The notes: generated from the sequence alone by a model not told the origin. Counted from the first letter of the stretch, positions 2 to 11,484 are shown. The stretch: DNA of 11,484 bases from an uncultured Methanosarcinales archaeon (GCA_964647565.1 CAZYIM010000056.1:1-11484); one strand, 5' to 3'. Made by a program: numbers and translations.

Positions 2-514
2 TATATTAAGCAGAACGATACTAATGATCAAGTATATACTTATCGCTTTGTAGATATTCCGAATTTTCCACAGATTGAGTTTGCAGAAATAACTCTGCCC
101 ATTGTCAATAATGAATATGAAAAAGGCCTTAGAAATGGTCTGGAAAACGGTCTGACCAGATATCTAAGAGCTGCAAAACTAGTTAAAATCTGGAAACCCC
201 TGCAAGAATATGGGCCTGATTTGTTCAATATCCTAATATATTTCCAAGCCCCTAAAAAGACCCAGGTTCGGCATGGCCTTTATATTCCTTTGATTGCAGA
301 TGATAGCAAGGTTCCTGAAGAAAAAAGGAACAATTTCTGGCATATCTTCTACGCTAAGTTCTTCAAAGAGAATGCCAAATCAGAGCTCTATTATCATGAA
401 ACTATAGATAGGACGCTGCTCAATTGTCATGGTCATTCCCTCTGTACTCCTGACCTGCATTTCAAGGGTTGTTTTGAGGATGCAATTCAAAAATATGGAG
501 GTCGAGAGCAATGA
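2..514 (+). CDS. Array paralog 1 (5'-truncated), hypothetical protein
   Basis: The frame of the 221..514 ORF is open back to position 2 (YIKQNDTNDQVYTYRFVDIPNFPQIEFAEITLP...KIWKPLQEYGPDLFNILIYF...GLYIPL...FWHIFYAK...AIQKYGGREQ*). It carries the family's core and C-terminal motifs, so TTG 221 is not the true start. Confidence 0.9.
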   Translation, partial: YIKQNDTNDQVYTYRFVDIPNFPQIEFAEITLPIVNNEYEKGLRNGLENGLTRYLRAAKLVKIWKPLQEYGPDLFNILIYFQAPKKTQVRHGLYIPLIADDSKVPEEKRNNFWHIFYAKFFKENAKSELYYHETIDRTLLNCHGHSLCTPDLHFKGCFEDAIQKYGGREQ

Positions 515-1326
515 GCGAGTTGATTGAAGCTGGTCCTGGAAAGATAAAGAAAAGGCCTAAGCAGCCTCCTTTCAAAACCCTTGTAGGCAGCGAGCTCAAC
601 CCGTTTGATATTGTTAATCCATTCAATACAAAATATAAATTCACTAAAGAGCTGGTTAAACTAAGAGAAGGTGAGTTGTTTGACTATCAGAGTATCAGGA
701 ATTCTGACTCTTTTGACAAGCTAGTGGAGGAATGTATGTTGCATGTTAATCCCTGTAGGTTTGCAAAGGAGTATTTCCTTGGAGATAAAGGATCTATCAA
801 TAAAGGATACGATAGTGACAGGTACACCATTGTTGATCCGAAAAGATTCCCTGGGGTGGTATGGGTAAGATTTGACATGCCTGTCGAACCTGATAGGAAG
901 AGCAGCATATATCATAAACCGCCAGAGCACTACAAGTATTTTATGAAATCTGAAGAGCTGATAAAATACATGGGTGAGGGCAATGGTCCACACCCCCATC
1001 ATTATTCTATGCAGGTCATCTTTGGCCAGGAGCCTGATAATGACCGTTATATGAGAGGTCTTTACATACCTCTAATGGTCGGCAACCATATCATGCCTGA
1101 TGAATGGCAGGGCAATCTGTGGTATATCTTTTCGACCAAGCACTATAATACCAAGCCAGTCAAGACAGAGCTGTTCTATTATCGATTGCAGGGAGGAATT
1201 GGATTTAACAAGCTGGGCAAAGAAGGTGGTGGAAGACCCACTATTTTTGCAGGGAAGACTCAAACTCATAAATTTTTCAAGAAAGGATTAGAAGATGCAA
1301 TTCAGGAATTAGGAGGGATAAGATGA
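511..1326 (+). CDS. Array paralog 2, hypothetical protein (271 aa)
   Basis: ATGA overlap with gene 1; GGAGGT at 497-502; motifs LIEAGPGKIKKR, NPF, GLYIPLM, LWYIF, AIQELGGIR. Confidence 0.92.
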   Translation: MSELIEAGPGKIKKRPKQPPFKTLVGSELNPFDIVNPFNTKYKFTKELVKLREGELFDYQSIRNSDSFDKLVEECMLHVNPCRFAKEYFLGDKGSINKGYDSDRYTIVDPKRFPGVVWVRFDMPVEPDRKSSIYHKPPEHYKYFMKSEELIKYMGEGNGPHPHHYSMQVIFGQEPDNDRYMRGLYIPLMVGNHIMPDEWQGNLWYIFSTKHYNTKPVKTELFYYRLQGGIGFNKLGKEGGGRPTIFAGKTQTHKFFKKGLEDAIQELGGIR

Positions 1327-2036
1327 CTGAAAAAGATGATATAATCGAGAATCATGAACCTGGCAAAAAGCCGAGGAGGAAGCTGAAGGCAGAGGAGAAA
1401 CAAAAAACTCTATGTCCTTTCTTGCAAGAGGGATTTAAGTGTATGTTTGATCCGAAATGGATTGATATGACTGTAAGGAGAATAACTAACGGTAAAAGTA
1501 AAGGATATTTTGGTTCGAATGACGTTCAAAATTGGCATGATGTTGCAAGTTTCCATTATGATGTTGTTGGGACTGGTAGATTGCTTGTTGATCTTGTCAA
1601 ACCCTATGATACCCAACAAAGGGACCATATAGAAATAAATAATCCTGATCATCTAGAGAAATATGTTTTTATAAATCATAGTAAAAGTTATCTTGCAAGG
1701 ATTTTTGAGCCAGAAATGCCTGATAATTTTTTTGCGTTCTCTAATGATGATATAAATAAGACAATCGAAGATTTTCAAAGATCAGAAACATCCGGGCTGA
1801 CCTTAATTGCTCTGGATGAGTTCTACCATTGTCAAAACAAAGCATGGCACGTACCATTTTTTCGGGATGATGATACTGTGCCTGAGCGTCTGCAGAATAA
1901 ACCAGGACATATCATAACCCTGAGCTACCTGCCAGAAGACAAAACTCTGAATGTGGATGATGTGCAACAATACGACCGGGACAAACTGCTTGGAGTGCTG
2001 CGTGAGACACTTGGGCTACCTGGTGAAAAAAAATAA
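1323..2036 (+). CDS. Array paralog 3, divergent 'IIEN/PRRKLK' subtype (237 aa)
   Basis: ATGA overlap; AGGAGG at 1311-1316. N-terminus MTEKDDIIENHEPGKKPRRKLK, and WHDVASFH and LIALD motifs, match genes 14/15. Confidence 0.9.
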   Translation: MTEKDDIIENHEPGKKPRRKLKAEEKQKTLCPFLQEGFKCMFDPKWIDMTVRRITNGKSKGYFGSNDVQNWHDVASFHYDVVGTGRLLVDLVKPYDTQQRDHIEINNPDHLEKYVFINHSKSYLARIFEPEMPDNFFAFSNDDINKTIEDFQRSETSGLTLIALDEFYHCQNKAWHVPFFRDDDTVPERLQNKPGHIITLSYLPEDKTLNVDDVQQYDRDKLLGVLRETLGLPGEKK

Positions 2037-2045
2037 AATAGATTT

Positions 2046-2071
2046 CCAATCAAGAATGAACCAATCAAGAA
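2046..2071 (+). repeat. Short direct repeat CCAATCAAGAA x2 at the only non-overlapping junction
   Basis: Copies at 2046-2056 and 2061-2071 bracket ATG 2056 and are followed by AAGAAAC repeats. Confidence 0.75.
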
Positions 2072-2853
2072 ACAAAGAAACAAGCCCGCTGATCGAAGCT
2101 GGAAGCGGTAAGATAAAGAAAAAGAGAAAGAACAAACCAGTGAAAACCTTCACCTCTGGCGATCGTATGATGCGAAATCCATATGAGATAGGAAGTGAAT
2201 ATCCTATTCGGCTTAAGAAAGTTCAAAAATCAGATGAAGTATTTTTTGGATCAATAGACAATAAATTCTATTTCAATCATCTTATCGAGCAAAATATTTG
2301 GTTGTTCAACCTGGAAATCATAGAAAAACTCTTTGATGCTTCAAAATATAAAAAAGTCAAGCATGATGATAATCCAACATATTATTTCTGTAATATCCCT
2401 GCTTTTCCTAATATTGAATTTGCTTCATTGTATATGCCCACCATTAGAGATGCAGATGAAAAACCGCATGATTCGTGGGATGAATCGCGGAAGAGAAAAG
2501 AGAAATTTTATTTTAAAACTCCAGATTTGGCTAAGTTATGGTATGTAATTGGTGGAGGAAGCTTTACACCCCATCTGCAGATATATTTTGAAACTTCTCC
2601 TAAGAGCAAAACCCGGAAAGGATTGTATGTTCCTATGATCCAAGGCGACTCAAAGACACCTGAAGAATCAGATGACTACCGCTGGAACATCTTCACATTG
2701 AAATTCTACAAGAAACCCAAGAAGTTCGAGATCTACAACTATGCTTCTTGTTCTAATACCTTTGACCAGCCTGCAGAACCAGGATGTGTAAGTCGAAAAT
2801 GCCTTGAGAAAGCATTGATACAAGGCATCAAGGAGGATGGTGGTATCAGATGA
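2056..2853 (+). CDS. Array paralog 4, hypothetical protein (~265 aa; start uncertain)
   Basis: Within the 1951..2853 ORF. ATG 2056 gives the family-typical length and puts LIEAGSGKIKKKRK near the N-terminus; in-frame GTG 2023 is an alternative. Motifs IPAFPNIE, GLYVPM, RWNIF, GIKEDGGIR. Confidence 0.85.
   Translation: MNQSRNKETSPLIEAGSGKIKKKRKNKPVKTFTSGDRMMRNPYEIGSEYPIRLKKVQKSDEVFFGSIDNKFYFNHLIEQNIWLFNLEIIEKLFDASKYKKVKHDDNPTYYFCNIPAFPNIEFASLYMPTIRDADEKPHDSWDESRKRKEKFYFKTPDLAKLWYVIGGGSFTPHLQIYFETSPKSKTRKGLYVPMIQGDSKTPEESDDYRWNIFTLKFYKKPKKFEIYNYASCSNTFDQPAEPGCVSRKCLEKALIQGIKEDGGIR
2089..2130 (+). repeat. 42-bp near-identical gene-start block, second copy at 4471-4512
   Basis: CTGATCGAAGCTGGAAG(C/T)GG(T/C)AAGATAAAGAAAAAGAGAAAG, 40/42 identical between genes 4 and 7. 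Confidence 0.9.
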
Positions 2854-3671
2854 ATATTATCAATGCTGGATCTGGAAAGATCAAGAAAAAGAGAAAGAAA
2901 CAGCTGTTAAATACCTATCATGGAAATTCTGTTGGTGGCAGCCCATTTGATAGTTATTACACTGAGAAATTATCTTATTTGAGGAATTCTAAACACATAC
3001 TAGAGCAAGGTGATATTGAGAATGCAGAATTCTTCCAGAGTCTGATTGGGCAGGACGCCTGGTTGTTTGATCCTCTCTTCGTTGAGAGATATTTTCTGGG
3101 CGCAAAACTAGTATTAAAAACAGATAATGAAGAACCCAAGGATTCAGAATATTATATGGAAGATATTCCTGAGTTCCCGAATATAGAGCTGGCCATTCTT
3201 AACCTTCCTAAAGTATGGGACTCTATTGAAGATAATGAGAACTATGAATACAATAAATCCCTGTACAGATATACCCAGAGCTGCATGAAGACACCTGACA
3301 TCATGAAGATATGGAGATCTACTCGTTATGGCGGAAGCGATTTTAGCCTGAAGATACATTTCAAGTCTGCTGAAAATAGTAATATCGGGAAGGCTGTCTA
3401 TGTTCCTGCTTTGCCTGGAAATGGTTATACGCATATAGACATGGATGCCAACCGCTGGAACATTCTTTCTATGGTCTATCATAAAAAACCTAAAAAGCAA
3501 GAAGTCTACAAGTATGCAACCTGTTCTAAGCATCACGAAAGCTATAAGCATCCTGACTGCGTGAAGCGAGAGTGCTTTGAAAAGACTCTTCTGCAGGCCA
3601 TCAAGGAGCAGGGAGGTTCTGAGCAACAAGTTGCTGGAACCTCGCCCGGAAAACTCGGAGGTATCAAATGA
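2850..3671 (+). CDS. Array paralog 5, hypothetical protein with 15-aa C-terminal extension (273 aa)
   Basis: ATGA overlap; motifs IINAGSGKIKKKRK, IPEFPNIE, AVYVPAL, RWNIL. Closest to gene 4 (KKPKK, C-x11-C-x4-C). Confidence 0.92.
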   Translation: MNIINAGSGKIKKKRKKQLLNTYHGNSVGGSPFDSYYTEKLSYLRNSKHILEQGDIENAEFFQSLIGQDAWLFDPLFVERYFLGAKLVLKTDNEEPKDSEYYMEDIPEFPNIELAILNLPKVWDSIEDNENYEYNKSLYRYTQSCMKTPDIMKIWRSTRYGGSDFSLKIHFKSAENSNIGKAVYVPALPGNGYTHIDMDANRWNILSMVYHKKPKKQEVYKYATCSKHHESYKHPDCVKRECFEKTLLQAIKEQGGSEQQVAGTSPGKLGGIK

Positions 3672-4465
3672 AGGTAATCAATGCAGGTTCTGGGAAGAAG
3701 AAAAAGAAGAAGAAACTCGAGTTAATCATAGAGATCACAGGTAATTATTTTGGCTTCAAAACGCCATTCGATGATATTAAGGAACATTTGAATACTATTG
3801 AAAGTTTTCGAGAGTCAACAAATGTTTTTAAACAGGGTACGATTAAGAATAAGGATAAGTATAAGAAAATAGCTGGCGAGCCAAATAAACCCTTTTTTCT
3901 TCTACAGCCAACTATTTTTGAGAAATTGTTTGAGGGTTCTAAATATAATAAAAGAGAGTATAAAAATTCAAATGTAATTGTGTATGAAATTGGTTCTATA
4001 CCGAATTTACCTCAGATTGAATATGCTTATCTATACCTTCCTACTTTTCAGGACAATATCAAATTTCCATATAAACGAAAGGGCGAAGCATTATTCAGAA
4101 GCCTTCAAAACCATATATCCCTTCCTGGACTATCAGGGATATGGAATGCGATTACTCAGGGGAGTCCAAACCACTTTAATCTTCAAGTATTCTTCAAGGC
4201 TGATAAAAAAGCACAGATCAGAGAAGGGCTCTATATTCCCTTGTTTTCAGGCGATATCAGGATCCCTGATAAAACCGTTGACAATAGCTGGCACATTTTC
4301 TATGCAAAATACTATGCAAAGGATCGAAAATCAGAATTGTATCTTTACGAGACTATCAATGGGCCGGTTGAAGATTGCTATCACGGCAATAAAATTTGTA
4401 CACCTCTAGATCATTTTGAATTTTGTTTTAAGGAAGCAGTGAAGAAGTATGGGGGCGCAAAGTGA
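3668..4465 (+). CDS. Array paralog 6, hypothetical protein (265 aa)
   Basis: ATGA overlap; GGAGGT at 3657-3662; motifs VINAGSGKKKKKKK, IPNLPQIE, GLYIPL, WHIFYAK, AVKKYGGAK. C-terminal half is closest to gene 1. Confidence 0.92.
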   Translation: MKVINAGSGKKKKKKKLELIIEITGNYFGFKTPFDDIKEHLNTIESFRESTNVFKQGTIKNKDKYKKIAGEPNKPFFLLQPTIFEKLFEGSKYNKREYKNSNVIVYEIGSIPNLPQIEYAYLYLPTFQDNIKFPYKRKGEALFRSLQNHISLPGLSGIWNAITQGSPNHFNLQVFFKADKKAQIREGLYIPLFSGDIRIPDKTVDNSWHIFYAKYYAKDRKSELYLYETINGPVEDCYHGNKICTPLDHFEFCFKEAVKKYGGAK

Positions 4466-5262
4466 AAAAACTGATCGAAGCTGGAAGTGGCAAGATAAAG
4501 AAAAAGAGAAAGATATCGCCAATATTTACTTCTAAAGGCAAGATTCCAGGTATGAAGAGTCCTTTTTCTAAAGAGCTCTTATATAGATCTCGTTTGGCGA
4601 GCGTGATGAGCAGCCAAGAAAGAATAAATGAAATCGGTTTTAGAGATGCAGAATTTTTAGAAAACTTGGCGAAAGACAGAATAATTTTCATAGATCCGAT
4701 CAAACCTGTTGAAGAGCTCTTTAAAGATGCTGTTTTTAAGGGATATACAGAATACACACATTTCAGATTTGAGATAGCAAAGATACCTTCTTTTCCACAA
4801 ATAGAGCTTGTAACATTAGGATTGCCAAGATACTTTGGAGCACACTCTTCCGATCAATCAGATAATCCTTTTGTTGAAGCAAATAGGGGTTTGTTAAAGT
4901 CAAAACATGTCTATAACATGTACCCTGCAATAAAAAATCGTAAATTAAATTTTTTAACCCTTAACATAATCTTCGAGCATGATGATGATAATCCTTCAAT
5001 CAGGAAGGGTCTTTTCATTCCTTTGATGAACGTGGACAAAAGGATCCCTGACAAAGACAAGGATAACTATTGGAACATCTACAAGGTCAGGCATTATGCA
5101 CAGCCAATAAAATCAGAGCTTTTCCCTTACATGCATTGTAATCATGATTTACTATATTGTAAAAATGGTACTTATGGACTACAGAAAAATATGTTGGCTT
5201 CGGATGACCAATTCCTTCATGCATTAGAAGAAGCCATTCTAGAATATGGAGGTAAGAAATGA
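4462..5262 (+). CDS. Array paralog 7, hypothetical protein (266 aa, GTG start)
   Basis: GTGA overlap; GGGGG at 4451-4455; motifs LIEAGSGKIKKKRK, IPSFPQIE, GLFIPLM, YWNIY, AILEYGGKK. Confidence 0.92.
   Translation: MKKLIEAGSGKIKKKRKISPIFTSKGKIPGMKSPFSKELLYRSRLASVMSSQERINEIGFRDAEFLENLAKDRIIFIDPIKPVEELFKDAVFKGYTEYTHFRFEIAKIPSFPQIELVTLGLPRYFGAHSSDQSDNPFVEANRGLLKSKHVYNMYPAIKNRKLNFLTLNIIFEHDDDNPSIRKGLFIPLMNVDKRIPDKDKDNYWNIYKVRHYAQPIKSELFPYMHCNHDLLYCKNGTYGLQKNMLASDDQFLHALEEAILEYGGKK
5248..5262 (+). promoter_or_regulatory. Representative SD plus ATGA translational-coupling junction (recurs at 14 junctions)
   Basis: GGAGGTAAGAAATGA. GGAGG/GGGGG/GGTGG/GGAG begins 10-14 nt (usually 11) before the next start at 497, 1312, 2839, 3657, 4451, 5248, 6042, 6839, 7651, 8436, 9197, 9965, 10702 and 11436. 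Confidence 0.85.
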
Positions 5263-6056
5263 GCAAACTGATCGAGGCTGGCCCTGGAAAGATAAAGAAA
5301 AAATTCAAAGATAAGACTCCAATCCACGAGATCCTTTATCACCAAGGTGGTTTCTTCAATCCGTTTACAGACATGGAAGGCTACTTAGAACGAATTGAGA
5401 AGGCAAGAACCTGTGGTGAAGAACCATTCAAACCAAAATATATTCAAGGAGTGGAGATATTCCAAAGGTCTTTTTTCTATTGGTTATGGATGATAGATCT
5501 AAAACCATTGGCAGAACTCTTCGAAGGTTCAAATTACAATTATTCAAAGCTGCCAATATCCGGTGATGAAAGAGGATTTCAGTACTTTTTTACTGATGTT
5601 CCAAAATATCCTGCGATCGAGTTAATGCAGATTACAATCCCTAAATTACAAGATGAGCTGATAATCGACAAGAATAAGAACACGACCTTTCAACAGGCAC
5701 TGCCTCAATATTTAACTAACAATAGGATGGTGCACATTTGGAATGCGCTTGAGGATTTGGGGCCGGATGCATTTAATATGCAGATCTTCTTCAAGACAGG
5801 AAAGGATAGCCAGGTCAAGGCCGGACTTTATGTACCTCTTGTGACGGGGGATCCATTAATACATGAAATTAACAGGGATTTTGACTGGCATATCTACAAT
5901 GTCAAGTTCTATGCAAATAGCAAGGCAGAAGTTTTCTATCATGATTATAATATCGGGCCTGTAGTAGGCTGCAAGAAGGTCAAGAAATGCGACCGCGACC
6001 AACATTTCTTCCACTCCTTAGATGATGCGATAATCAAGTACGGAGGCAGAAAATGA
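5259..6056 (+). CDS. Array paralog 8, hypothetical protein (265 aa)
   Basis: ATGA overlap; GGAGGT at 5248-5253; motifs LIEAGPGKIKKK, FNPF, YPAIELMQI, GLYVPL, WHIY, DQHFFHSLDDAIIKYGGRK. Confidence 0.92.
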   Translation: MSKLIEAGPGKIKKKFKDKTPIHEILYHQGGFFNPFTDMEGYLERIEKARTCGEEPFKPKYIQGVEIFQRSFFYWLWMIDLKPLAELFEGSNYNYSKLPISGDERGFQYFFTDVPKYPAIELMQITIPKLQDELIIDKNKNTTFQQALPQYLTNNRMVHIWNALEDLGPDAFNMQIFFKTGKDSQVKAGLYVPLVTGDPLIHEINRDFDWHIYNVKFYANSKAEVFYHDYNIGPVVGCKKVKKCDRDQHFFHSLDDAIIKYGGRK

Positions 6057-6853
6057 GCAAACTGATTGAAGCCGGACCTGGAAAGATAAAGAAGAAGAGG
6101 AAGACTAAAGCTCTTTATACTGTCCAGGATTGGTGGGCTGGTTTGTTTAACCCGTTTGAAAACTTAGAAGAGTATTATGATAACATAAATAATACAAAGA
6201 AAACAGAAGAAAAGGGATTTTCGTCAGACTACTTCAAAAATCTGGAATATTTTGAGCCTCTCTCACTCAATAGAGTCTGGATGATCTCACTTGCAAGAAT
6301 TGGAAAATTCTGTGAAGGTTCTGATTTTCATGACTCCCCAATAAAATTAATTGTAAATAGACTTATTGGACATGAATATTGTTTTTCAAACATTCCTTCT
6401 CATCCATCGATCGAGTTAATGCAAATCTCTGTTCCGGATGTTGATAATAAAATGAAGATTCCTAAGATGAATTCTACCTTTCAAAAAAGCTTGGAGCATT
6501 ATGTCCAGAATCCCAAATTGACCAAGATTTGGAAAGCTCTTCATGAATGGGGGCCGGGCAGGTTTAACATGCAGATATATTTCAAGTCTGATAAGAAGAG
6601 CAAGATCATAGAAGGGCTTTACATACCTCTGATGAAGGGAGATCCCAGGATACCTGAGCATAATAAGGGCAATCTCTGGCACATCTTCTATGTCAAGTTC
6701 ATGAGGAAGAAAGCAGAGATATACTATCATGATAATGGTGCTTTGGTTACCAACTGCCCTAAGGCCAGGAAGCGAGGACCTTATTGTAATCCTGATCAGC
6801 ATTTCTTCCACTCGCTAGGGGATGCGATAATCAAGTATGGAGGTCGAAAATGA
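6053..6853 (+). CDS. Array paralog 9, hypothetical protein (266 aa)
   Basis: ATGA overlap; GGAGG at 6042-6046. Sister of gene 8 (IELMQI, FNMQI, DQHFFHSLxDAIIKYGGRK). Confidence 0.92.
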   Translation: MSKLIEAGPGKIKKKRKTKALYTVQDWWAGLFNPFENLEEYYDNINNTKKTEEKGFSSDYFKNLEYFEPLSLNRVWMISLARIGKFCEGSDFHDSPIKLIVNRLIGHEYCFSNIPSHPSIELMQISVPDVDNKMKIPKMNSTFQKSLEHYVQNPKLTKIWKALHEWGPGRFNMQIYFKSDKKSKIIEGLYIPLMKGDPRIPEHNKGNLWHIFYVKFMRKKAEIYYHDNGALVTNCPKARKRGPYCNPDQHFFHSLGDAIIKYGGRK

Positions 6854-7665
6854 GTCTAGCACCACCATTCAAGTGGCCTCCTGTCCTACGTAGCAAGGGA
6901 ATAATACATAAGCCTGAATCCGGCAAGAAGAAGAAAATACCCAAAGTCTTGACGCCAAAGAACAGTAAAGTCCTTGCTGACTATATTAGGGATCTGGACT
7001 CATCGCCGCGTGGAAGCATATATCCTGAGAAAAAGTACGCTATAATGAGGGATATAGATAAAGAGGTTAGGCCCAGTTCCAGAGCGATTTTTTCTGGGTT
7101 TCCTGAATTCAAAAAAGGCAGCATAAAGGAGCATAAAAGGCTTAAACAGATGGCTGAAAAGACTCCTGAAATGTTGGATATTGTTCCCATAATAGAATCT
7201 GTATTTGCTGGCGTGCCTTACCATAGGATGGAGCGTGATGATTTTGTACATTATTACCTGCTTGAAGATAAGAGATATCCTAACTTGTCTATGGCCAGGT
7301 TCACAACCTTAGACTTTAAATGGAGAAGAAAAAAAGCAAAAAACTCAACCCTTATCTCAAACTCTTCAGGCAATAAAGTTTACGCTAGTAACCAACTTAT
7401 TTCTACTGAAAAGATGACTTTTTACATTGCTTTTGATATGCTTCCAAGTGGGAAAAGGGAGTACACAGGTAATAACATACTGATTCCGACAAATACTCTG
7501 GATGGTAGAATACCTGGAGAAGTCAGGGATTACAGAGGCCATATGTTCCTTGTCTCCTGGTTCCAGGCCAACTCCCGGATGACATATCATTCTGCTTATC
7601 GAACAGAGTCTGGTCTTGAAAAAGGCTTGGTATCTGTGCTTGAGAAATACGGGGGTGGCAAATGA
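6850..7665 (+). CDS. Array paralog 10, divergent member with N-terminal extension (271 aa)
   Basis: ATGA overlap; GGAGGT at 6839-6844; IIHKPESGKKKKI, RYPNLSMAR, ILIPTNTLDGRIP, VLEKYGGGK are degenerate family motifs. Confidence 0.9.
   Translation: MSLAPPFKWPPVLRSKGIIHKPESGKKKKIPKVLTPKNSKVLADYIRDLDSSPRGSIYPEKKYAIMRDIDKEVRPSSRAIFSGFPEFKKGSIKEHKRLKQMAEKTPEMLDIVPIIESVFAGVPYHRMERDDFVHYYLLEDKRYPNLSMARFTTLDFKWRRKKAKNSTLISNSSGNKVYASNQLISTEKMTFYIAFDMLPSGKREYTGNNILIPTNTLDGRIPGEVRDYRGHMFLVSWFQANSRMTYHSAYRTESGLEKGLVSVLEKYGGGK
6919..6938 (+). repeat. 20-bp exact direct repeat, second copy at 7746-7765
   Basis: TCCGGCAAGAAGAAGAAAAT in genes 10 and 11. Their 3' ends also share GGGGGTGGCAAATGA (7651-7665, 8436-8450). 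Confidence 0.88.
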
Positions 7666-8450
7666 CAATAATATCCCAAAAAGCCTATCAAGACGGATTT
7701 AATAAGGTTAGTCCGGATCCCAATATAATAGTCCATGAACCCAGCTCCGGCAAGAAGAAGAAAATCAAGAAGTCCAGAATTATATATGGAGAGATCATGG
7801 ATAAATACAAGAGGGTATTGACTGGCACTGGCCAGGGATTCCTCAATCCTTATCTTGAAAAGGATTTGATCTATGATTTGGTCCGTGAGATTCCGAAAAC
7901 AGGCAATGTCTTGGAAAAAGGATCGATTGAAGAGAGCCCTTTTTATGCAGCCCTGGCAAAAAGAAGACAGCTGGCTTCTCTGTGTGAAGTCTGTGAGAAT
8001 ATGTTTTTGGGGGCCAGCTATAAAAAAACAGAGACCAATGAGGCCCTTGAGTACTGTTTTACCGATGTGCCTAGATTCCCCCAGGTCAGGATTGCAAGAT
8101 TGAATCTTTTCAAGATTGCTGACTTCCAGGAAACATGGCCTGCTCTTGCAGAGACTGATTTTGTGTCCCAGTGGCAGGTCCTTAAGTTCTCCCAGGATAA
8201 TTTCACACTTAATATCCTGTTAAAGGGTAAAATGAGAGAAGGCCTGCTAATCCCCCTGGCAAGGTATGACACTCGAATACCTAGTGAGACCAAAAGCGAA
8301 TATAGTCATGTCTTCAACTACAGGTTCTATCCAGGATCAGAACACAAACCGCCCAGGATGATCCTAAGATATCATGATGTCTGTAGTTCGAGAGGCTCGC
8401 TTGAGGCAGGCATACAAAGAGCAATAATCAAGTATGGGGGTGGCAAATGA
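7662..8450 (+). CDS. Array paralog 11, with N-terminal extension (262 aa)
   Basis: ATGA overlap; motifs IIVHEPSSGKKKKI, LNPY, VPRFPQVRIAR, GLLIPLARYDTRIP, AIIKYGGGK. Confidence 0.92.
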   Translation: MTIISQKAYQDGFNKVSPDPNIIVHEPSSGKKKKIKKSRIIYGEIMDKYKRVLTGTGQGFLNPYLEKDLIYDLVREIPKTGNVLEKGSIEESPFYAALAKRRQLASLCEVCENMFLGASYKKTETNEALEYCFTDVPRFPQVRIARLNLFKIADFQETWPALAETDFVSQWQVLKFSQDNFTLNILLKGKMREGLLIPLARYDTRIPSETKSEYSHVFNYRFYPGSEHKPPRMILRYHDVCSSRGSLEAGIQRAIIKYGGGK

Positions 8451-9211
8451 ATCTGATTGAAGCTGGCCCTGGAAGGAGAAAACGCTGGAAGACGATAAAT
8501 AAGGTGAATTTGAATGGCAAGGAGGTTGCTGTTGCAGATTATAATGGCAACATGATCTGGTATAATGTCTTTAGTGATGAGACCTTCCGTATTCATGATA
8601 ATCTTATAAAGGGATTCAAGAAAAACCTGGAAAAAGATAAACAGTGGCTTTTAGCAGATGACCAGATACAGATGAATTCTACTGTCCTAGCTTGTGCCAA
8701 GAAAGAACCCAACAGCATTCTTCGATTAGATGCGCTTGCTAATGATGTTTTCAAAGACAGCGTCTATGTGGTACAGAGAGATACAATCGATGATGTTTAT
8801 TGTTTTTTTAATGTGCCTGATATGCCGCATGTTGATATGGCTCGTTTAAAAATTCCTTCAAATACAAAACCTGAATATGATTTTAAAGAAACATTCTTAG
8901 ATAAAGAAATTACTTATCGAGCAACGCGACAATCGTATTACCTGGAAATATTCTTCAAAAGGAAGCTAAAAAAACCACGTGAAATTCTTTTCATACCCCT
9001 GGACAGCTGTCATGAACTAGTTCCTGCAGAGCTGCAAAATAATGAATTCTGCATATTCTATAAGAGATATGATAAAGCTAAGGGGCTGGTTCCTGAGGAG
9101 TATCCCCACCCTACGATCTTCATTTCAATTGTAGGCTCATCGCACTTTCCAGAGAAAATGGGTCAACTGCTCAAGGATGTCATTGAGAAATATAATGGAG
9201 GCAGAACATGA
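8447..9211 (+). CDS. Array paralog 12, hypothetical protein (254 aa)
   Basis: ATGA overlap; motifs LIEAGPGRRKRWK, VPDMPHVDM, EIFFKR, LFIPL, NEFCIF, IEKYNGGRT. Confidence 0.92.
   Translation: MNLIEAGPGRRKRWKTINKVNLNGKEVAVADYNGNMIWYNVFSDETFRIHDNLIKGFKKNLEKDKQWLLADDQIQMNSTVLACAKKEPNSILRLDALANDVFKDSVYVVQRDTIDDVYCFFNVPDMPHVDMARLKIPSNTKPEYDFKETFLDKEITYRATRQSYYLEIFFKRKLKKPREILFIPLDSCHELVPAELQNNEFCIFYKRYDKAKGLVPEEYPHPTIFISIVGSSHFPEKMGQLLKDVIEKYNGGRT
8459..8492 (+). repeat. 34-bp exact direct repeat, second copy at 9220-9253
   Basis: GAAGCTGGCCCTGGAAGGAGAAAACGCTGGAAGA at the 5' ends of genes 12 and 13. Confidence 0.92.
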
Positions 9212-9978
9212 ATATTATCGAAGCTGGCCCTGGAAGGAGAAAACGCTGGAAGAAGATAACTCATGTTAATCTGGGGAATTCTAAAGTTAGTGTCAACTCA
9301 TTTAATGACAGCAGGATTTTCAATGAAGCTCTTGCTTTTGAACTTGTTGAATATCATGACAAGCTCATATCAGGTGGTAAAAATCACATTAGGAGACAAG
9401 GAAAGATTCTTGAACCAGCTAGTCAGATAAATCTGCATCCGACTGTTAAACCTTTGGTTGATCATGAATACCGTACCATATTGCCTTTAGATGAAATAGC
9501 AAAGCAAGTTTTCCAGAATGGCTACTTTGTTGAATCATATCATGTCATAAGTTCAGATTATTCTATCTATAAGATACCTGGGATGAAGCGTGTTGACATG
9601 GTTCATGTCAGCCTTCCATCTCATCGGGAGAAAGAGTATCCTTTTGATAACCTTTTTGGTCCTGAAAACTGTTTGGAGAAAGAGAAGAAAATAAGAGACT
9701 CATTCCACATGGAGATATTCTTCAAAAGAGGGCCAAAAAAATACAGGGAAAGCCTCTACATACCTTTGAGTTACTACCACAATCACATTCCTGTGCCTAT
9801 GAAAGGAAATGAATTCTGCATATTCCACAGGAAATATGAGAAATCATATGCATGCAAGAGTGGGGATGAGTATTACCTATCTGTAGTTCAATTCTCAATT
9901 GTGAATTCAACTCACTATCCAGAAAAGATAGGACCGATGCTAAAGGCTGCAATTAATGATTATAGGAGGGAAAAATGA
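9208..9978 (+). CDS. Array paralog 13, hypothetical protein (256 aa)
   Basis: ATGA overlap; GGAGG at 9197-9201. Sister of gene 12 (IEAGPGRRKRWK, EIFFKR, LYIPL, NEFCIF, SIVxSxH(F/Y)PEK). Confidence 0.92.
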   Translation: MNIIEAGPGRRKRWKKITHVNLGNSKVSVNSFNDSRIFNEALAFELVEYHDKLISGGKNHIRRQGKILEPASQINLHPTVKPLVDHEYRTILPLDEIAKQVFQNGYFVESYHVISSDYSIYKIPGMKRVDMVHVSLPSHREKEYPFDNLFGPENCLEKEKKIRDSFHMEIFFKRGPKKYRESLYIPLSYYHNHIPVPMKGNEFCIFHRKYEKSYACKSGDEYYLSVVQFSIVNSTHYPEKIGPMLKAAINDYRREK

Positions 9979-10718
9979 CTGATAAAGACAATATTATTGA
10001 GAATACTACATCTGGCAGGAAGCCGAGGAGGAAGCTAAAGGATAGAACAAAGGGACAGCCCAATTTTTTTGATATATTCCAAACTACAGGTGAAGGTCAT
10101 CTTAAAGCATTGTTCAATAAAGAGGATATTAGCATGACAAGGAAACGGATTGAGCATGATAATGATGGAACATTTGATTTAGGCATACTTGACGTGCAAT
10201 GGCATAAAGTTTCTTTATTCCATGACGCGATAGTGCCTATCGATACTTTTGCGAATAGTCTAGTATCTCGAGATTATGCTGGCGGCTATGATGTGAAATA
10301 CCTCAAGATTGTGGGGGGTTTAAGATGTGAGTATTATTTTATGGCACCTCAAAAAACGTTTGGCGACGTATTGGTTAAATTGTCTGTGCCAAAAGCAGGT
10401 AAGGATTTTCGCAATTCCAGCAATCTTGCCATAAACAGTTTTATCAAGGATTTAAACGAGAAAAATGGCCAACATAATCTGGCAATGGTGGCTCTGGATC
10501 AAGATAATACGCCACGAAAAGGTCTCTACATCCCTATGCTTAGAACTGATAATAGATTGGATGATAATCTTAAATCTAAATTTGCTAATGTTTTTCTGAT
10601 GAAATATGATGCTAATGCAGAAGGAATTGATTATTTCCACCTAGACTCCTTGAAAAATGAAGAAGAAGCCAAAGCTTTTCTTAAAAATACCTTAAAAGAC
10701 TGGAGATATAAAAAATGA
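9975..10718 (+). CDS. Array paralog 14, 'IIEN/PRRK' subtype (247 aa)
   Basis: ATGA overlap; AGGAGG at 9964-9969; IIENTTSGRKPRRKLK. RKGLYIPMLRTDNRL links it to the main family. Confidence 0.92.
   Translation: MTDKDNIIENTTSGRKPRRKLKDRTKGQPNFFDIFQTTGEGHLKALFNKEDISMTRKRIEHDNDGTFDLGILDVQWHKVSLFHDAIVPIDTFANSLVSRDYAGGYDVKYLKIVGGLRCEYYFMAPQKTFGDVLVKLSVPKAGKDFRNSSNLAINSFIKDLNEKNGQHNLAMVALDQDNTPRKGLYIPMLRTDNRLDDNLKSKFANVFLMKYDANAEGIDYFHLDSLKNEEEAKAFLKNTLKDWRYKK
9990..10024 (+). repeat. 35-bp exact direct repeat, second copy at 10733-10767
   Basis: AATATTATTGAGAATACTACATCTGGCAGGAAGCC at the 5' ends of genes 14 and 15. Confidence 0.92.
10573..10612 (+). repeat. 40-bp near-identical block, second copy at 11307-11346
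   Basis: AATCTAAATTTGCTAATGTTTTTC(T/A)GATGAAATATGATGC, 39/40 identical between genes 14 and 15. Confidence 0.88.
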
Positions 10719-11452
10719 CTGAAGACGATCAAAATATTATTGAGAATACTACATCTGGCAGGAAGCCAAGAAGGAAGCCTAAGGATGTAACCAAGGGCGA
10801 ACCTGATTTTCACGATCTGTTTCAGATTTCAGGGCAGGATCACCTTCAGGTATTGTTCGATAAAGATGATATTAGCATGACTAATCAACGACTTTACAAT
10901 GCTAATGATGGCGAGTTTAAATTAGAAGATCTTGAGGTGCAGTGGAATAAGATTGCATTATTCCATAAAGCAGTAGTTCCTATTGATAGATTTGTATTTC
11001 GCATGGTTGAATATGGGAGTCCTCCTTCCAGGTATCTTAAGATTTTAACTGATCAAAGATTAGAGTATTATCTCAAGCCGCCTTCAGATTATTATAGAGA
11101 TGTGATGGTGAAATTGTCGATGCCACAACATGGTGAGGATTTTCTAAATTCCAGTAACAAATATATCAACGAGTATATCGAAGGATTATCTGGAAAAGCA
11201 GCTCAATTCAATCTAGCTATTGTACCCTTAAATGGCAATACTCCGCAACGTAAAGGTCTTTATATCCCTATGATGAGGACAGATTCAAGACTAGAGCAAG
11301 ATTTCCAATCTAAATTTGCTAATGTTTTTCAGATGAAATATGATGCAAGGGAAGAAGGGATAGATTATTTTCATCTCAAATCCTTGAAGAACGAAATGGA
11401 TGTGATAAGATTTATTCAAAATACGTTGCAAAAATGGAGAAATAAAAAATGA
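10715..11452 (+). CDS. Array paralog 15, 'IIEN/PRRK' subtype (245 aa)
   Basis: ATGA overlap. Close sister of gene 14 along its length (SKFANVFxMKYDAxxEGIDYFHLxSLKNE). Confidence 0.92.
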   Translation: MTEDDQNIIENTTSGRKPRRKPKDVTKGEPDFHDLFQISGQDHLQVLFDKDDISMTNQRLYNANDGEFKLEDLEVQWNKIALFHKAVVPIDRFVFRMVEYGSPPSRYLKILTDQRLEYYLKPPSDYYRDVMVKLSMPQHGEDFLNSSNKYINEYIEGLSGKAAQFNLAIVPLNGNTPQRKGLYIPMMRTDSRLEQDFQSKFANVFQMKYDAREEGIDYFHLKSLKNEMDVIRFIQNTLQKWRNKK

Positions 11453-11484
11453 CTGATAATGATAATAAAGATATTATTGAGAGT
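11449..11484 (+). CDS. Array paralog 16 (3'-truncated)
   Basis: ATGA overlap with the gene 15 stop; reads MTDNDNKDIIES, matching MTDKDNIIEN of genes 14/15. Confidence 0.8.
   Translation, partial: MTDNDNKDIIES

Follow-up and report, generated by a model that had tools for sequence, protein, structure and literature searches.

How can the genes of one tandem array share short stretches of identical DNA, silent positions included, when the proteins encoded in between differ at many or most residues? The question is posed by an archaeal DNA stretch of 11,484 nucleotides (hereafter the window), for which an earlier note listed seven such patches at gene starts, gene ends and motifs, considering homogenisation by gene conversion or unequal crossing-over, unusually fast evolution of the interiors, or function of the patches as DNA or RNA sites. 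The window is an entire contig (C56) and represents one piece of a chromosomal tandem array in a marine archaeon genome, which comprises at least 115 co-oriented paralogues spread over ~91 kb and six contigs. Within every contig all family ORFs (115 over the six contigs) point one way, and the repeating unit is ~800 bp long with one family gene each. Contigs C14 (59.6 kb, 75 family genes), C56, C68 and C69 are array end to end, both array ends are located on contigs C1 and C36, each adjoining housekeeping genes, and C69 continues at its end into the start of C36 (P0086). A TATA-like TTTATAAA precedes the first array gene. None of the RNA runs searched for the sequence carried it, and the family was found in none of the related genomes examined.

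The paralogues (~260 aa) form an orphan family: a Pfam search gave no match, and neither did a fold search with the confident model obtained for one member (g08 in Table 1; pLDDT 90, pTM 0.88). When 14 window genes are aligned, identity of the proteins to the first of them is 14–28%; body identity rises to 37–55% in the closest window pairs, and conserved positions of the body are occupied mainly by hydrophobic residues or Pro. The best-conserved element of the family, its first ~17 codons, encodes a polybasic motif with the consensus I-x-A-G-S-G-K-(K/I)-(K/P)-(K/R)-(K/R)-x-K, in which G is conserved in 99%, I in 93% and K/R at two positions in 100%; it can follow 20–60 extra residues, and its invariant G lies past residue 25 in 11 of 103 genes.

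Table 1. Family genes of the window and the seven identity patches, with positions of both copies (N motif, N-terminal polybasic motif)
Feature	Position	Strand	Length	Remarks
g00	2..514	+		5' end cut by contig start; C-terminal ...KYGGREQ
g01	511..1326	+	271 aa	N motif LIEAGPGKIKKRPK; ATGA overlap with g00
g02	1323..2036	+	237 aa	motif variant IIENHEPGKKPRRK
g03	2056..2853	+	265 aa	from ATG 2056; sole window junction without ATGA overlap; gene 4 of the earlier note
g04	2850..3671	+	273 aa	
g05	3668..4465	+	265 aa	
g06	4462..5262	+	266 aa	GTG start; gene 7 of the earlier note
g07	5259..6056	+	265 aa	
g08	6053..6853	+	266 aa	protein chosen for structure model
g09	6850..7665	+	271 aa	~20 extra residues before motif
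g10	7662..8450	+	262 aa	~25 extra residues before motif
g11	8447..9211	+	254 aa	
g12	9208..9978	+	256 aa	
g13	9975..10718	+	247 aa	motif IIENTTSGRKPRRK
g14	10715..11452	+	245 aa	mosaic: first ~160 nt nearer g13, remainder nearer the first gene of contig C14
g15 start	11449..11484	+		contig ends within N motif
exact patch	8459..8492 (g11) / 9220..9253 (g12)	+	34 nt	N motif
exact patch	9990..10024 (g13) / 10733..10767 (g14)	+	35 nt	N motif
patch, 40/42	2089..2130 (g03) / 4471..4512 (g06, non-adjacent)	+	42 nt	N motif
exact patch	6919..6938 (g09) / 7746..7765 (g10)	+	20 nt	N motif SGKKKKI
exact patch	6024..6040 (g07) / 6821..6837 (g08)	+	17 nt	3' ends; g07 encodes DAIIKY
exact patch	9041..9058 (g11) / 9808..9825 (g12)	+	18 nt	interior motif NEFCIF
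exact patch	2678..2690 (g03) / 3451..3463 (g04)	+	13 nt	RWNI

All seven patches were recovered where the earlier note had placed them, four falling into the N-terminal motif, one at a C-terminal end and two in interior motifs of neighbouring relatives (g11 and g12 are such relatives, with 37% body identity). Same codons are used at 12/13 sites in the motif versus 45/81 in the interior for g11/g12, and at 12/14 versus 23/57 for g03/g06 (p=0.0024), while in the g13/g14 pair pS is 0.27 for the N-block versus 0.60 for the whole gene. With proteins fixed and codons redrawn from family codon usage (300 redraws), the window is expected to contain on average 0.92 runs of at least 17 nt (max 4) versus 13 observed, 0.17 runs of at least 20 nt (max 2) versus five, and 0 of at least 30 nt versus two. 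For runs of at least 13 nt the respective values are 9.0 and 34, and since such runs are common by chance (max 28) the 13/13 patch is weak if taken alone, though it is in register. In the 106 complete paralogues of the genome (20 redraws), 202 runs of at least 17 nt were observed versus 21 expected (max 34), 98 versus 4.5 of at least 20 nt and 12 versus 0 of at least 30 nt; the N-terminal motif holds 164 of these 202 runs, 132 of which belong to pairs with bodies less than 30% identical. Thus the identity exceeds what protein conservation and codon usage produce together.

The reading we prefer, with a probability of roughly 0.6, is that the patches are gene junctions of the array, kept alike by nucleotide-level constraint combined with short-tract conversion or recombination. 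Stop and start codons overlap by -4 (ATGA) at 69 of 109 junctions, and within the last codons of the upstream gene a Shine-Dalgarno-like 4-mer for the next gene is present at positions -18..-5 in 67 of 106 junctions versus 8.8 (max 16) in interior control windows. GGAGG is placed 7–10 nt ahead of ATG, and the 3' end of 16S rRNA (...GGATCACCTCCT) carries the anti-Shine-Dalgarno CCUCC. In all 26 upstream proteins having GG among the last six residues, this coincides with the 4-mer, the codons of C-terminal Tyr-Gly-Gly doubling as the GGAGG of the next gene. The 17-nt patch directly precedes a Shine-Dalgarno in both copies (GGAGG of g08 for the g07 copy, that of g09 for the g08 copy), and of the 60 longest self-blastn HSPs, 43 span a gene junction. 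Coupling, together with a Shine-Dalgarno located in the preceding gene, explains why the 3' ends are conserved, the apparent "protein motif" Tyr-Gly-Gly included. For identical residues in pairs of 20–30% identity, the same-codon fraction is 0.474 versus 0.415 expected in the last eight codons and 0.495 versus 0.388 in the N-terminal motif. Codons in the latter are position-specific (ATC 41/64, GCA 42/64, GGA 53/67, AAG 54/64 and 57/68), Lys in the family as a whole being encoded by 1818 AAA versus 1286 AAG; motif A-runs of at least 7 occur in only seven genes versus 35.2 expected (min 22 in 300), and those of at least 9 in 0 versus 15.5. The proposal of functional DNA or RNA sites is therefore supported both by the Tyr-Gly-Gly codons serving as GGAGG and by the avoidance of A-runs in the motif Lys codons.

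In the mechanism suggested here, units of the array would be translationally coupled: the stop of gene i usually overlaps the start of gene i+1 (ATGA), and in many cases the ~20 nt at the end of gene i supply its Shine-Dalgarno GGAGG, read as Tyr-Gly-Gly. One source of likeness would be nucleotide-level constraint at these dual-use junctions, arising from base pairing to the 16S rRNA end CCUCC, from the context of ATGA coupling and from a preference for AAG rather than AAA, which would maintain the Lys tract without long A-runs; jointly they would result in position-specific codon use common to the whole family. The other source would be exchange among junctions in short tracts, by gene conversion or unequal recombination and more frequent among neighbours, copying a junction or motif onto a paralogue whose body is unrelated within the family.

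Vertical descent alone, with junction synonymous sites under nucleotide-level selection and conversion between paralogues not needed, takes the same constraint as its starting point, since position-specific codon use, A-run avoidance and Shine-Dalgarno signals within coding sequence are real. It also agrees with the body tree: whether a motif is of type KPRR or KKKK mostly follows the ancestry of the body (13 changes versus 29.3 shuffled), and the codon of the motif G keeps tree signal (38 changes versus 51.9, 0/300 shuffles as low), in contrast to an interior conserved Pro codon (34 versus 35.7). Under strict criteria the best N-block match reaches at least 0.85 in 18 genes, and only 2/18 are discordant with the best body match, so that very similar N-blocks are found mostly (16/18) in closest-body pairs. 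Among 2410 pairs compared for codon identity of motif over interior, none passes Bonferroni correction (best p 5.1e-5 versus 2.1e-5 needed). We nevertheless consider descent alone a rather unlikely account. When codons were permuted only among genes sharing the residue at a given position (200 permutations), in-register runs in pairs with bodies less than 30% identical numbered 118 versus 49.3 (max 71) for at least 17 nt and 56 versus 13.2 (max 27) for at least 20 nt, which implies that synonymous states of the motif are associated with each other more strongly than codon usage by position explains. Sharing of runs depends on array distance (7/66 for adjacent genes, 17/303 at 2–5 genes, 13/852 at 6–20 and 17/1276 beyond 20), and permutation of gene order in C14 gave 6.9 (max 16) versus 23 observed (p=0.0005); body identity stays flat over distance (0.237–0.241), and a slower synonymous clock in the motif together with tandem duplication could explain part of this neighbour effect. 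In 18 motif-bearing closest pairs N-block pS splits into low and saturated classes (0.10–0.38 in eight, 0.46 in one, at least 0.63 in nine) instead of being uniformly lowered. Selection for weak RNA structure, which descent might invoke, is small (0.64 kcal/mol, 64/106 genes, p=0.017).

Several genes are mosaic, their nearest relative switching right behind the motif. Informative sites split 12/0 then 48/248 for C14_00, 7/0 then 55/218 for C68_00, 27/17 then 41/118 for g14, 8/0 then 73/205 for C14_09 and 13/2 then 85/151 for C14_06 (permutation p 0.0005–0.002, the triplets having been picked after discordance had been seen); the test for g03/g06 was not significant (p=0.09). C14_00 equals the distant C14_04 over 55/55 nt, unlike its closest body relative g14, from which it differs at ~10/50 positions. 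Contigs C14 and C68 each begin with 55 nt that occur again without change, at C14:2916 and C14:58870 respectively, followed by unrelated bodies; 55 nt is a likely assembly k-mer length, and the metagenome assembly in which these repeats start contigs is of low depth. In a systematic scan, discordance between N-block and body at p<1e-3 was detected in 17/106 genes versus 4.6 (max 11), above all 100 column permutations; the summed -log10 p of 151 is not beyond the permuted values (max 159), which counts against conversion. Deletions, duplications, circles or strain differences with breakpoints in a patch did not come to light in the low-depth public-run contigs. Homogenisation by gene conversion or unequal crossing-over is thus supported indirectly, via linked synonymous states, neighbour enrichment, mosaics and 55-nt repeats, and the mosaics probably originated by conversion or recombination.

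Dedicated site-specific recombination or cassette shuffling (integron-, shufflon- or expression-site-like) moving whole genes would suit a conserved ~40–80-nt junction that recurs once per ~800-bp unit in direct orientation along a 115-unit array, and the 55-mer shared by C14:58870 and the C68 start has one assembled way in and two out, which could reflect alternative gene order in the population. This explanation appears very improbable, however: no recombinase was found among 19 array-flank proteins, the six tyrosine-recombinase matches of the genome all lie outside the array contigs, and a search for reverse transcriptase in the 86.9%-complete genome found none. Besides, the patches are translated and differ in sequence among subfamilies, inverted-repeat structure is counted as lacking (the repeat listing covers direct families only), and all units are complete genes with start and coupling rather than silent cassettes.

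Hardly more credible is the combination of ordinary junctions with interiors diverging unusually fast by diversifying selection or targeted hypermutation. The low body identity of window paralogues to the first gene speaks for it, as does conservation falling to 0.04–0.24 in several 10-residue blocks, but whole-gene pS in the 20 closest pairs is 0.57–0.80 (dS ~1 to saturated), dN/dS where computable is 0.10–0.37 (0.12–0.53 in the variable half), interior synonymous sites in pairs of 20–30% identity stay at codon-usage expectation (same-codon fraction at identical residues 0.427 versus 0.416), and the reverse transcriptase of a diversity-generating retroelement was likewise not found in that genome. 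Given dS of ~1 or more and low dN/dS, the interiors stem from old duplications and evolve under purifying selection, not fast; the earlier interpretation is thus supported in part, for conversion and functional sites but not for fast interiors. An assembly artefact that fused paralogues or strains into chimeras at low depth, suggested by a public-run depth of only ~2–5 and by contigs breaking in or beside the motif (window end; C14 and C68 starts with repeated 55-mers), is the least probable explanation, given that contigs from four other public runs match the window with 0 differing letters (the best holder may be the source sample), that public-run contigs bridge junctions (e.g., 4337–6295, three junctions, and 9995–10767, the g13/g14 junction), that ORFs are open throughout all 106 complete paralogues, and that window patches of at most 35 nt, shorter than the 55-nt overlap, are alone unable to misjoin contigs at that k.

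The nearest known analogue of the junction-based array is homology-block recombination in esaG and tipC immunity arrays. As described by Garrett et al. (2022; PMC9484751), it operates in the tandem T7SS immunity genes esaG of Staphylococcus aureus and tipC of streptococci and in the lpl lipoprotein genes of S. aureus, esaG having blocks of high nucleotide similarity of ~55 nt at the 5' and 3' ends with variable regions between; conserved parts are proposed there to provide a framework and variable parts specificity, the key evidence being copy-number change between strains. Both are strings of co-oriented non-identical paralogues in which similar short 5' and 3' blocks flank variable regions and mosaic genes occur, and mosaic recombination anchored in blocks would be a further likeness. 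The archaeal array differs from these loci in host and in size (91 kb with at least 115 genes versus up to ~12–15 genes), its duplicates are all old (dS at least 1), and the family is without detectable EsaG or TipC homology (no Pfam match; TipC2 Z 2.9). Toxin or secretion genes were not found in the array flanks, intergenic spacers are absent, the 3' block is a Shine-Dalgarno in the upstream gene and the 5' block a polybasic motif.

In silent-cassette antigenic variation loci (Borrelia vls, Neisseria pilS, Anaplasma msp2) conserved ends guide segmental gene conversion, and arrays of diverged copies with conserved ends are common to both; the archaeal units, however, are complete genes (106 complete ORFs) with their own start, coupling signal and stop, under purifying selection and without a separate expression site, signal peptide or surface features. 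Integron cassette arrays are very long and one-directional with a short conserved element per unit, as here, but the archaeal array has no adjoining integrase, its element is coding and direct instead of an attC hairpin, and its units are all mutually homologous. Translationally coupled operons can have stop and start overlapping in ATGA and the Shine-Dalgarno placed within the preceding gene; they resemble the array in overlap, GGAGG spacing and anti-Shine-Dalgarno, the difference being that here more than 100 such couplings follow one another and link members of a single family. Oomycete RxLR and Plasmodium PEXEL proteins offer a functional analogy only: they too are expanded families whose bodies have diversified behind a short, conserved address at the N-terminus, and in either case a very large, diverged family is conserved best in a short invariant N-terminal motif. 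The archaeal proteins lack a signal peptide, and their motif is polybasic and sometimes stands behind 20–60 extra residues. The archaeal motif may serve as a common address or binding tail, with the bodies carrying diversified specificities.

All seven patches of exact DNA identity that the earlier note had described between paralogues of the window (34/34, 35/35, 40/42, 20/20, 18/18, 17/17 and 13/13) were found in place, and the statement that this identity exceeds the needs of the proteins was confirmed by a chance control in which every protein was kept and each codon was redrawn from the codon usage of the family (300 redraws for the window). Exact runs of at least 17 nt between different genes of the window numbered 13 versus a mean of 0.92 after redrawing (maximum 4), those of at least 20 nt 5 versus 0.17 and those of at least 30 nt 2 versus 0, while runs of 13 nt (34 versus 9.0, maximum 28) were much nearer to chance, so that the 13/13 patch carries little weight alone. 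Across the whole genome, the 106 complete genes of the family share 202 runs of at least 17 nt versus 21 (maximum 34) and 12 of at least 30 nt versus 0. A polybasic motif in the first ~17 codons (N motif) holds 164 of the 202 runs detected between different paralogues, 132 of these 164 belonging to pairs with bodies less than 30% identical and 79 to pairs from different contigs. Among the 60 longest HSPs of a self-comparison by blastn, 43 cross a gene junction, typically extending from the last 5–40% of one gene to the first 5–25% of the next. Thus, the conserved DNA unit is the junction, comprising the stop of one gene together with the Shine-Dalgarno sequence and the start and N motif of the following one, rather than separate gene starts and gene ends. 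The array accordingly has blocks of closely similar DNA at the ends of its genes, with variable regions between them.

Inspection of the junctions revealed signals of translation. If each start is taken as the one closest to the stop of the preceding gene, 69 of 109 junctions have a 4-nt ATGA overlap and most others fall within a few bases of it, with the consensus ...atGGagg.a.AAA ahead of the ATG. Shine-Dalgarno-like 4-mers were registered at positions -18 to -5 of 67 among 106 junctions versus 8.8 in interior windows (maximum 16 in 200 draws), and in all 26 upstream proteins having Gly-Gly within the last six residues (26/26) the two features coincide. The end of 16S rRNA (...CACCTCCT / ...GGATCACCTCCT) offers an anti-Shine-Dalgarno sequence matching that of the junctions. 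Since the 4-mers both coincide with Gly-Gly ends and match the 16S end, the C-terminal “KYGGxK” is largely the Shine-Dalgarno of the next gene read as protein, which accounts for patches at the ends of genes, such as the one at 6024 and 6821. Overlap, Shine-Dalgarno inside the upstream gene and matching anti-Shine-Dalgarno together make up the layout predicted from sequence for a translationally coupled operon. Codon choice within the N motif is position-specific family-wide (ATC 41/64, GCA 42/64, GGA 53/67, AAG 54/64 and 57/68), and its Lys tract avoids long A-runs despite the family preference for AAA (1818 AAA > 1286 AAG): runs of at least 7 occur in only 7 genes versus 35.2 expected (minimum 22 in 300) and runs of at least 9 in none versus 15.5. 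A small effect of selection for weak RNA structure (0.64 kcal/mol) is detectable near the start. These junction and codon constraints raise the fraction of same codons at identical residues, which reaches 0.495 in the motif where 0.388 is expected and 0.474 in the last eight codons where 0.415 is expected; the interiors, at 0.427 versus 0.416, are saturated. Shine-Dalgarno sequences, predicted start coupling, slippage-safe Lys codons and the conserved polybasic motif thus bear out the proposal that the patches are functional DNA or RNA sites.

For the same patches, gene conversion or unequal crossing-over had been offered as one of the alternatives. For estimation of this contribution, codons were swapped only among genes with an identical residue at the given motif position, thereby keeping position-specific usage. 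In pairs with bodies less than 30% identical, in-register runs of at least 17 nt numbered 118 versus 49.3 (maximum 71) and those of at least 20 nt 56 versus 13.2 (maximum 27), both observed counts lying above every one of 200 codon permutations. Motif sharing also depends on array distance, being found in 7 of 66 adjacent pairs, 17/303 at 2–5 genes, 13/852 at 6–20, 17/1276 beyond 20 genes and 64/2512 between contigs; permutation of the gene order in contig C14, the largest piece of the array, gave 6.9 (maximum 16 in 2000) versus 23 observed. Body identity of the same pairs is flat with distance (0.237–0.241), and interior synonymous sites are saturated. Of the 20 closest pairs, 18 have the motif in both genes, and pS of the N block is 0.10–0.38 in eight of them, 0.46 in one and at least 0.63 in nine, whole-gene pS being 0.57–0.80 throughout the 20. 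Two such classes would not be expected from uniform constraint.

Mosaic structure was addressed with triplet tests, in which the nearest relative of a gene (named here by contig and order) switches behind the motif. At informative sites, C14_00 gave 12/0 and then 48/248, C68_00 7/0 and then 55/218, C14_09 8/0 and then 73/205, C14_06 13/2 and then 85/151, while the window paralogue g14 is at 27/17 like its neighbor g13 and then at 41/118 like C14_00. Permutation p for these five triplets, picked after inspection, is 0.0005–0.002. A systematic scan with a fixed N block of 19 codons identified discordance at p<1e-3 in 17 of 106 genes versus a mean of 4.6 (maximum 11 in 100 column permutations), with its summed score inside the permuted range. 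Two contig starts contribute further: C14:1-55 is an exact copy of C14:2916-2970 in the N motif of C14_04, and C68:1-55, in array orientation, is an exact copy of C14:58870-58924 at the junction of C14_73 and C14_74, the sequences behind both 55-mers being unrelated within the family; this length is a plausible assembly k, and the assembly is low-depth.

Several results point the other way. None of 2410 pairs passes Bonferroni correction in per-pair Fisher tests of motif-over-interior codon identity (best 5.1e-5 versus 2.1e-5), and the pair g03/g06, which supplied the 40/42 patch between non-adjacent genes, does not reach significance in the mosaic test (p=0.09). In 16 of 18 cases the pairs with very similar N blocks are also closest in body, motif type tracks the body tree (13 changes versus 29.3), and tree signal is retained by some motif codons. 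Because of the Bonferroni result, this co-inheritance, the scan sum, the post hoc choice of triplets and the nature of the 55-mers, gene conversion or recombination between paralogues is regarded as likely but not proven, linked synonymous states, the neighbor effect and the mosaics being in its favor; conversion and unequal crossing-over are not separable on these data. The third possibility raised, that interiors evolve unusually fast, finds no support: among the 20 closest pairs dS is about 1 or more and dN/dS, where computable, 0.10–0.37, the closest pair in the whole family being 56% identical, so that the interiors are old duplicates kept by purifying selection. Of the earlier interpretation, then, fast interiors fall away, and the patches are functional sites which probably serve in addition as anchors of short exchanges between paralogues.

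The 55-mer shared by the C68 start and C14:58870 is entered by one assembled path and left by two, which could reflect either a repeat or a second gene order within the population. In public sequencing data the window sequence occurs, always as contigs, in eight runs of marine or seawater origin that come from two studies; no RNA run is listed among them. Contigs of four runs, at depth 2–5, have no differing letter relative to the window and bridge several junctions (e.g., 4337-6295). Three contig “joints” against the window, with short sides of 21–33 nt, and loose ends at 1323-1372, 2098-2130, 5268-5301 and 9971-10031, running into other paralogues of the same genome, were rejected as rearrangements, being graph branches into other paralogues at shared patches.

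The window encompasses 16 co-oriented ORFs of about 245–273 aa, 14 complete and two cut by contig ends, whose products are only 14–28% identical to the first one. It is an entire contig of a 2.68-Mb genome assembled in 86 contigs, with the same G+C content (38.4%), completeness of 86.9% and contamination of 1.85%. The genome is archaeal according to an SSU_rRNA_archaea match of 1405 bits, and the 40 nearest sampled relatives all fall into the same order but another family and have genomes of 0.6–2.1 Mb; from this rRNA and the sizes of the order relatives we infer a lineage of DPANN type. At 2.68 Mb and 86.9% completeness this genome exceeds all 40 of them. An HMM iterated over all genome ORFs collected 115 family members, about 3.4% of the genome, on six contigs with one strand per contig (see table), protein P0086 spanning the joint of C69 and C36. 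Contigs C1 and C36 run on into ordinary chromosomal genes and therefore hold both ends of the array. Encoded in the flanks are a HAD hydrolase, metallophosphatase, AbrB-type regulators, Fic, a CBS protein, a PurM-like protein, acetyl-CoA hydrolase and diphthamide synthase. Ahead of the first array gene lies an AT-rich spacer with TTTATAAA. Read most simply, the six contigs are pieces of a single locus that has at least 115 genes and spans about 91 kb. If it is as assembled, this is to our knowledge among the largest tandem paralogue arrays known in a prokaryote.

Pieces of the array and accompanying features (window features in window coordinates; L010–L012, array flank loci)
Feature	Coordinates	Strand	Content
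Contig C14	1-59641 (59.6 kb)	one strand	75 members, wall to wall
Window (contig C56)		one strand	15 members and a 12-codon stub; about one eighth of the array
Contig C68		one strand	9 members, end to end
Contig C69		one strand	8 members, end to end; its end joins the C36 start
Contig C1	1-4254, one contig end		5 members
Contig C36	1-2166, one contig end		3 members
Damaged-looking unit, the sole one	C14:51490-53210		193-aa truncated paralogue, 161-nt gap, paralogue with 38-residue N-terminal extension
Within that stretch, apparently broken unit	C14:51490-52320		two stops (one TAG, one TAA)
Long ORF	C1:11750-23293 (L010/L011)	-	3847 aa; about 7.5 kb from array start
Fic/DOC-domain protein	L010:8833-9861	+	near array end
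Proteins with N-terminal AbrB/MazE-like domain	L010:7855-8733; L012:4985-5875		~290 aa; near two array ends
Antisense ORFs of the window	721-1002; 1410-1652; 3144-3629; 4428-4757; 6416-6811; 7000-7251; 7366-7668; 8018-8293	-	80-161 aa

Searches with Pfam, PHROGs, NCBIfam and PADLOC gave no family for 7–8 window proteins, nor did Pfam for all 91 rows of the family alignment A2, where a single match to DUF3782 (E 0.0093, in only 1/91 rows) was discarded; the family profile had no match among PDB sequences (best E 0.1). An earlier protein search with alignment A1 had returned three proteins, all from this genome, and a profile search over 1.84 billion representative proteins gave 96 matches. Of the 97 proteins thus collected, 85 are at least 98% identical to ORFs of this genome, three are near-identical fragments or variants and nine are distant (22–35% identity), sharing the body and lacking the N-terminal motif. 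P0049, P0067 and P0072 are such relatives without the polybasic motif and not encoded in this genome. At the start of several distant proteins a short duplicated motif (type MVGTGG(I/L)xPC ... GG(I/L)xPC) takes its place, and the body therefore may be combined with other N-terminal tags in other organisms. The family was found in 0 of 40 order relatives and, across the phylum, in 0 of 400 sampled genomes, and a search for related loci (queries A4, A5, P0082 and P0043) among contigs of metagenomes, genomes and viruses gave no relative.

The N motif is the best-conserved part of the family (I 93%, G 99%, K/R 100% at two positions, K 88%). In 11 of 103 genes its invariant G is placed after residue 25, so that a free N-terminus beside the motif is not required. 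The body is conserved mainly at hydrophobic residues and Pro (P128 91%, P192 96%), among which no catalytic set is obvious. AlphaFold2 with a 91-row alignment returned a confident alpha+beta model (pLDDT 90.0, pTM 0.88), for which Foldseek against PDB and BFVD gave 0 matches at E <=0.001, a wide VIA-align search a best Z of 5.0 (2vck_A, rmsd 4.9, 130 aligned), under the usual noise level, rechecked Foldseek matches a best Z of 3.6 (TipC2 2.9), and ESM Atlas a best score of 0.84 (recognition 1889) with no lead. The predicted fold is thus not recognized by these searches, and a new fold is not claimed. As a working guess of low confidence, the motif may serve all members as a polybasic address or binding tail, the bodies being diversified binding modules.

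The closest known parallel is offered by tandem immunity genes, which recombine between short homology blocks at their ends, as described in firmicutes for esaG and tipC and also for lpl (PMC9484751). Compared with esaG and tipC, the archaeal array is likewise a string of co-oriented, non-identical paralogues (here 115 ORFs on six contigs) and likewise has mosaic genes with breakpoints at the blocks, our triplets being post hoc; unlike them, it resides in an archaeal host, is about ten times larger, and has coding, dual-use junctions in place of intergenic blocks (PMC9484751). The array appears esaG/tipC-like in layout and mosaics and is probably not a member by homology: a check for EsaG and TipC homology through Pfam, NCBIfam, PHROG and PADLOC found no family, TipC2 reaching the Z of 2.9 only, and no toxin or secretion component was found among 19 flank proteins. 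Full-text literature searches turned up no account of an archaeal array of this kind. A silent-cassette locus of antigenic variation has one expression site and promoterless, truncated donor cassettes; it was rejected because 106 ORFs here are complete and carry both a start codon and coupling signals, a single unit appearing broken. Integrons possess an adjacent integrase and attC-type imperfect inverted repeats between cassettes; this origin was rejected, as no recombinase was found among the 19 flank proteins and the conserved elements are direct and coding. Six tyrosine-recombinase matches are present in the genome, none on array contigs. The target of a diversity-generating retroelement, a system with reverse transcriptase and a template/variable repeat pair, is dismissed by the lack of an RVT_1 match in the 86.9%-complete genome and by old divergence under purifying selection.

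It might further be supposed that the junction design itself is adaptive, in-frame dual-coded junctions serving as universal homology arms for a coupled repertoire of at least 115 proteins, which we regard as rather improbable. Diversified proteins, each with the same polybasic address or binding tail, would then be produced from one coupled array, and any two junctions could recombine, whereby whole genes would be added, deleted or re-paired with the reading frame intact. If so, it would be a built-in archaeal cassette turnover, the array content would differ between cells of a population, and the 55-mer entered by one path and left by two would be a first trace of it. Apart from that, an array of at least 115 genes with predicted translational coupling is a more striking result than the patches, its family having no name, no recognized fold and almost no relatives (nine distant ones among 1.84 billion representatives). 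Apparent “protein motifs” such as the C-terminal Tyr-Gly-Gly can be disguised translation signals, and dual-coded junctions can serve also as recombination anchors, which would extend the mechanism of bacterial immunity gene strings to archaea at ten-fold larger scale. The locus is a target for long-read metagenomics and for studying the role of a universal polybasic tag in these small-genome archaea.

The antisense ORFs of the window are treated as chance ORFs of the AT-rich antisense strand. On C1, the long ORF is adjoined by a 629-aa CBS-domain protein, and its beginning resembles what we take to be the active-site region of a subtilisin-type protease.
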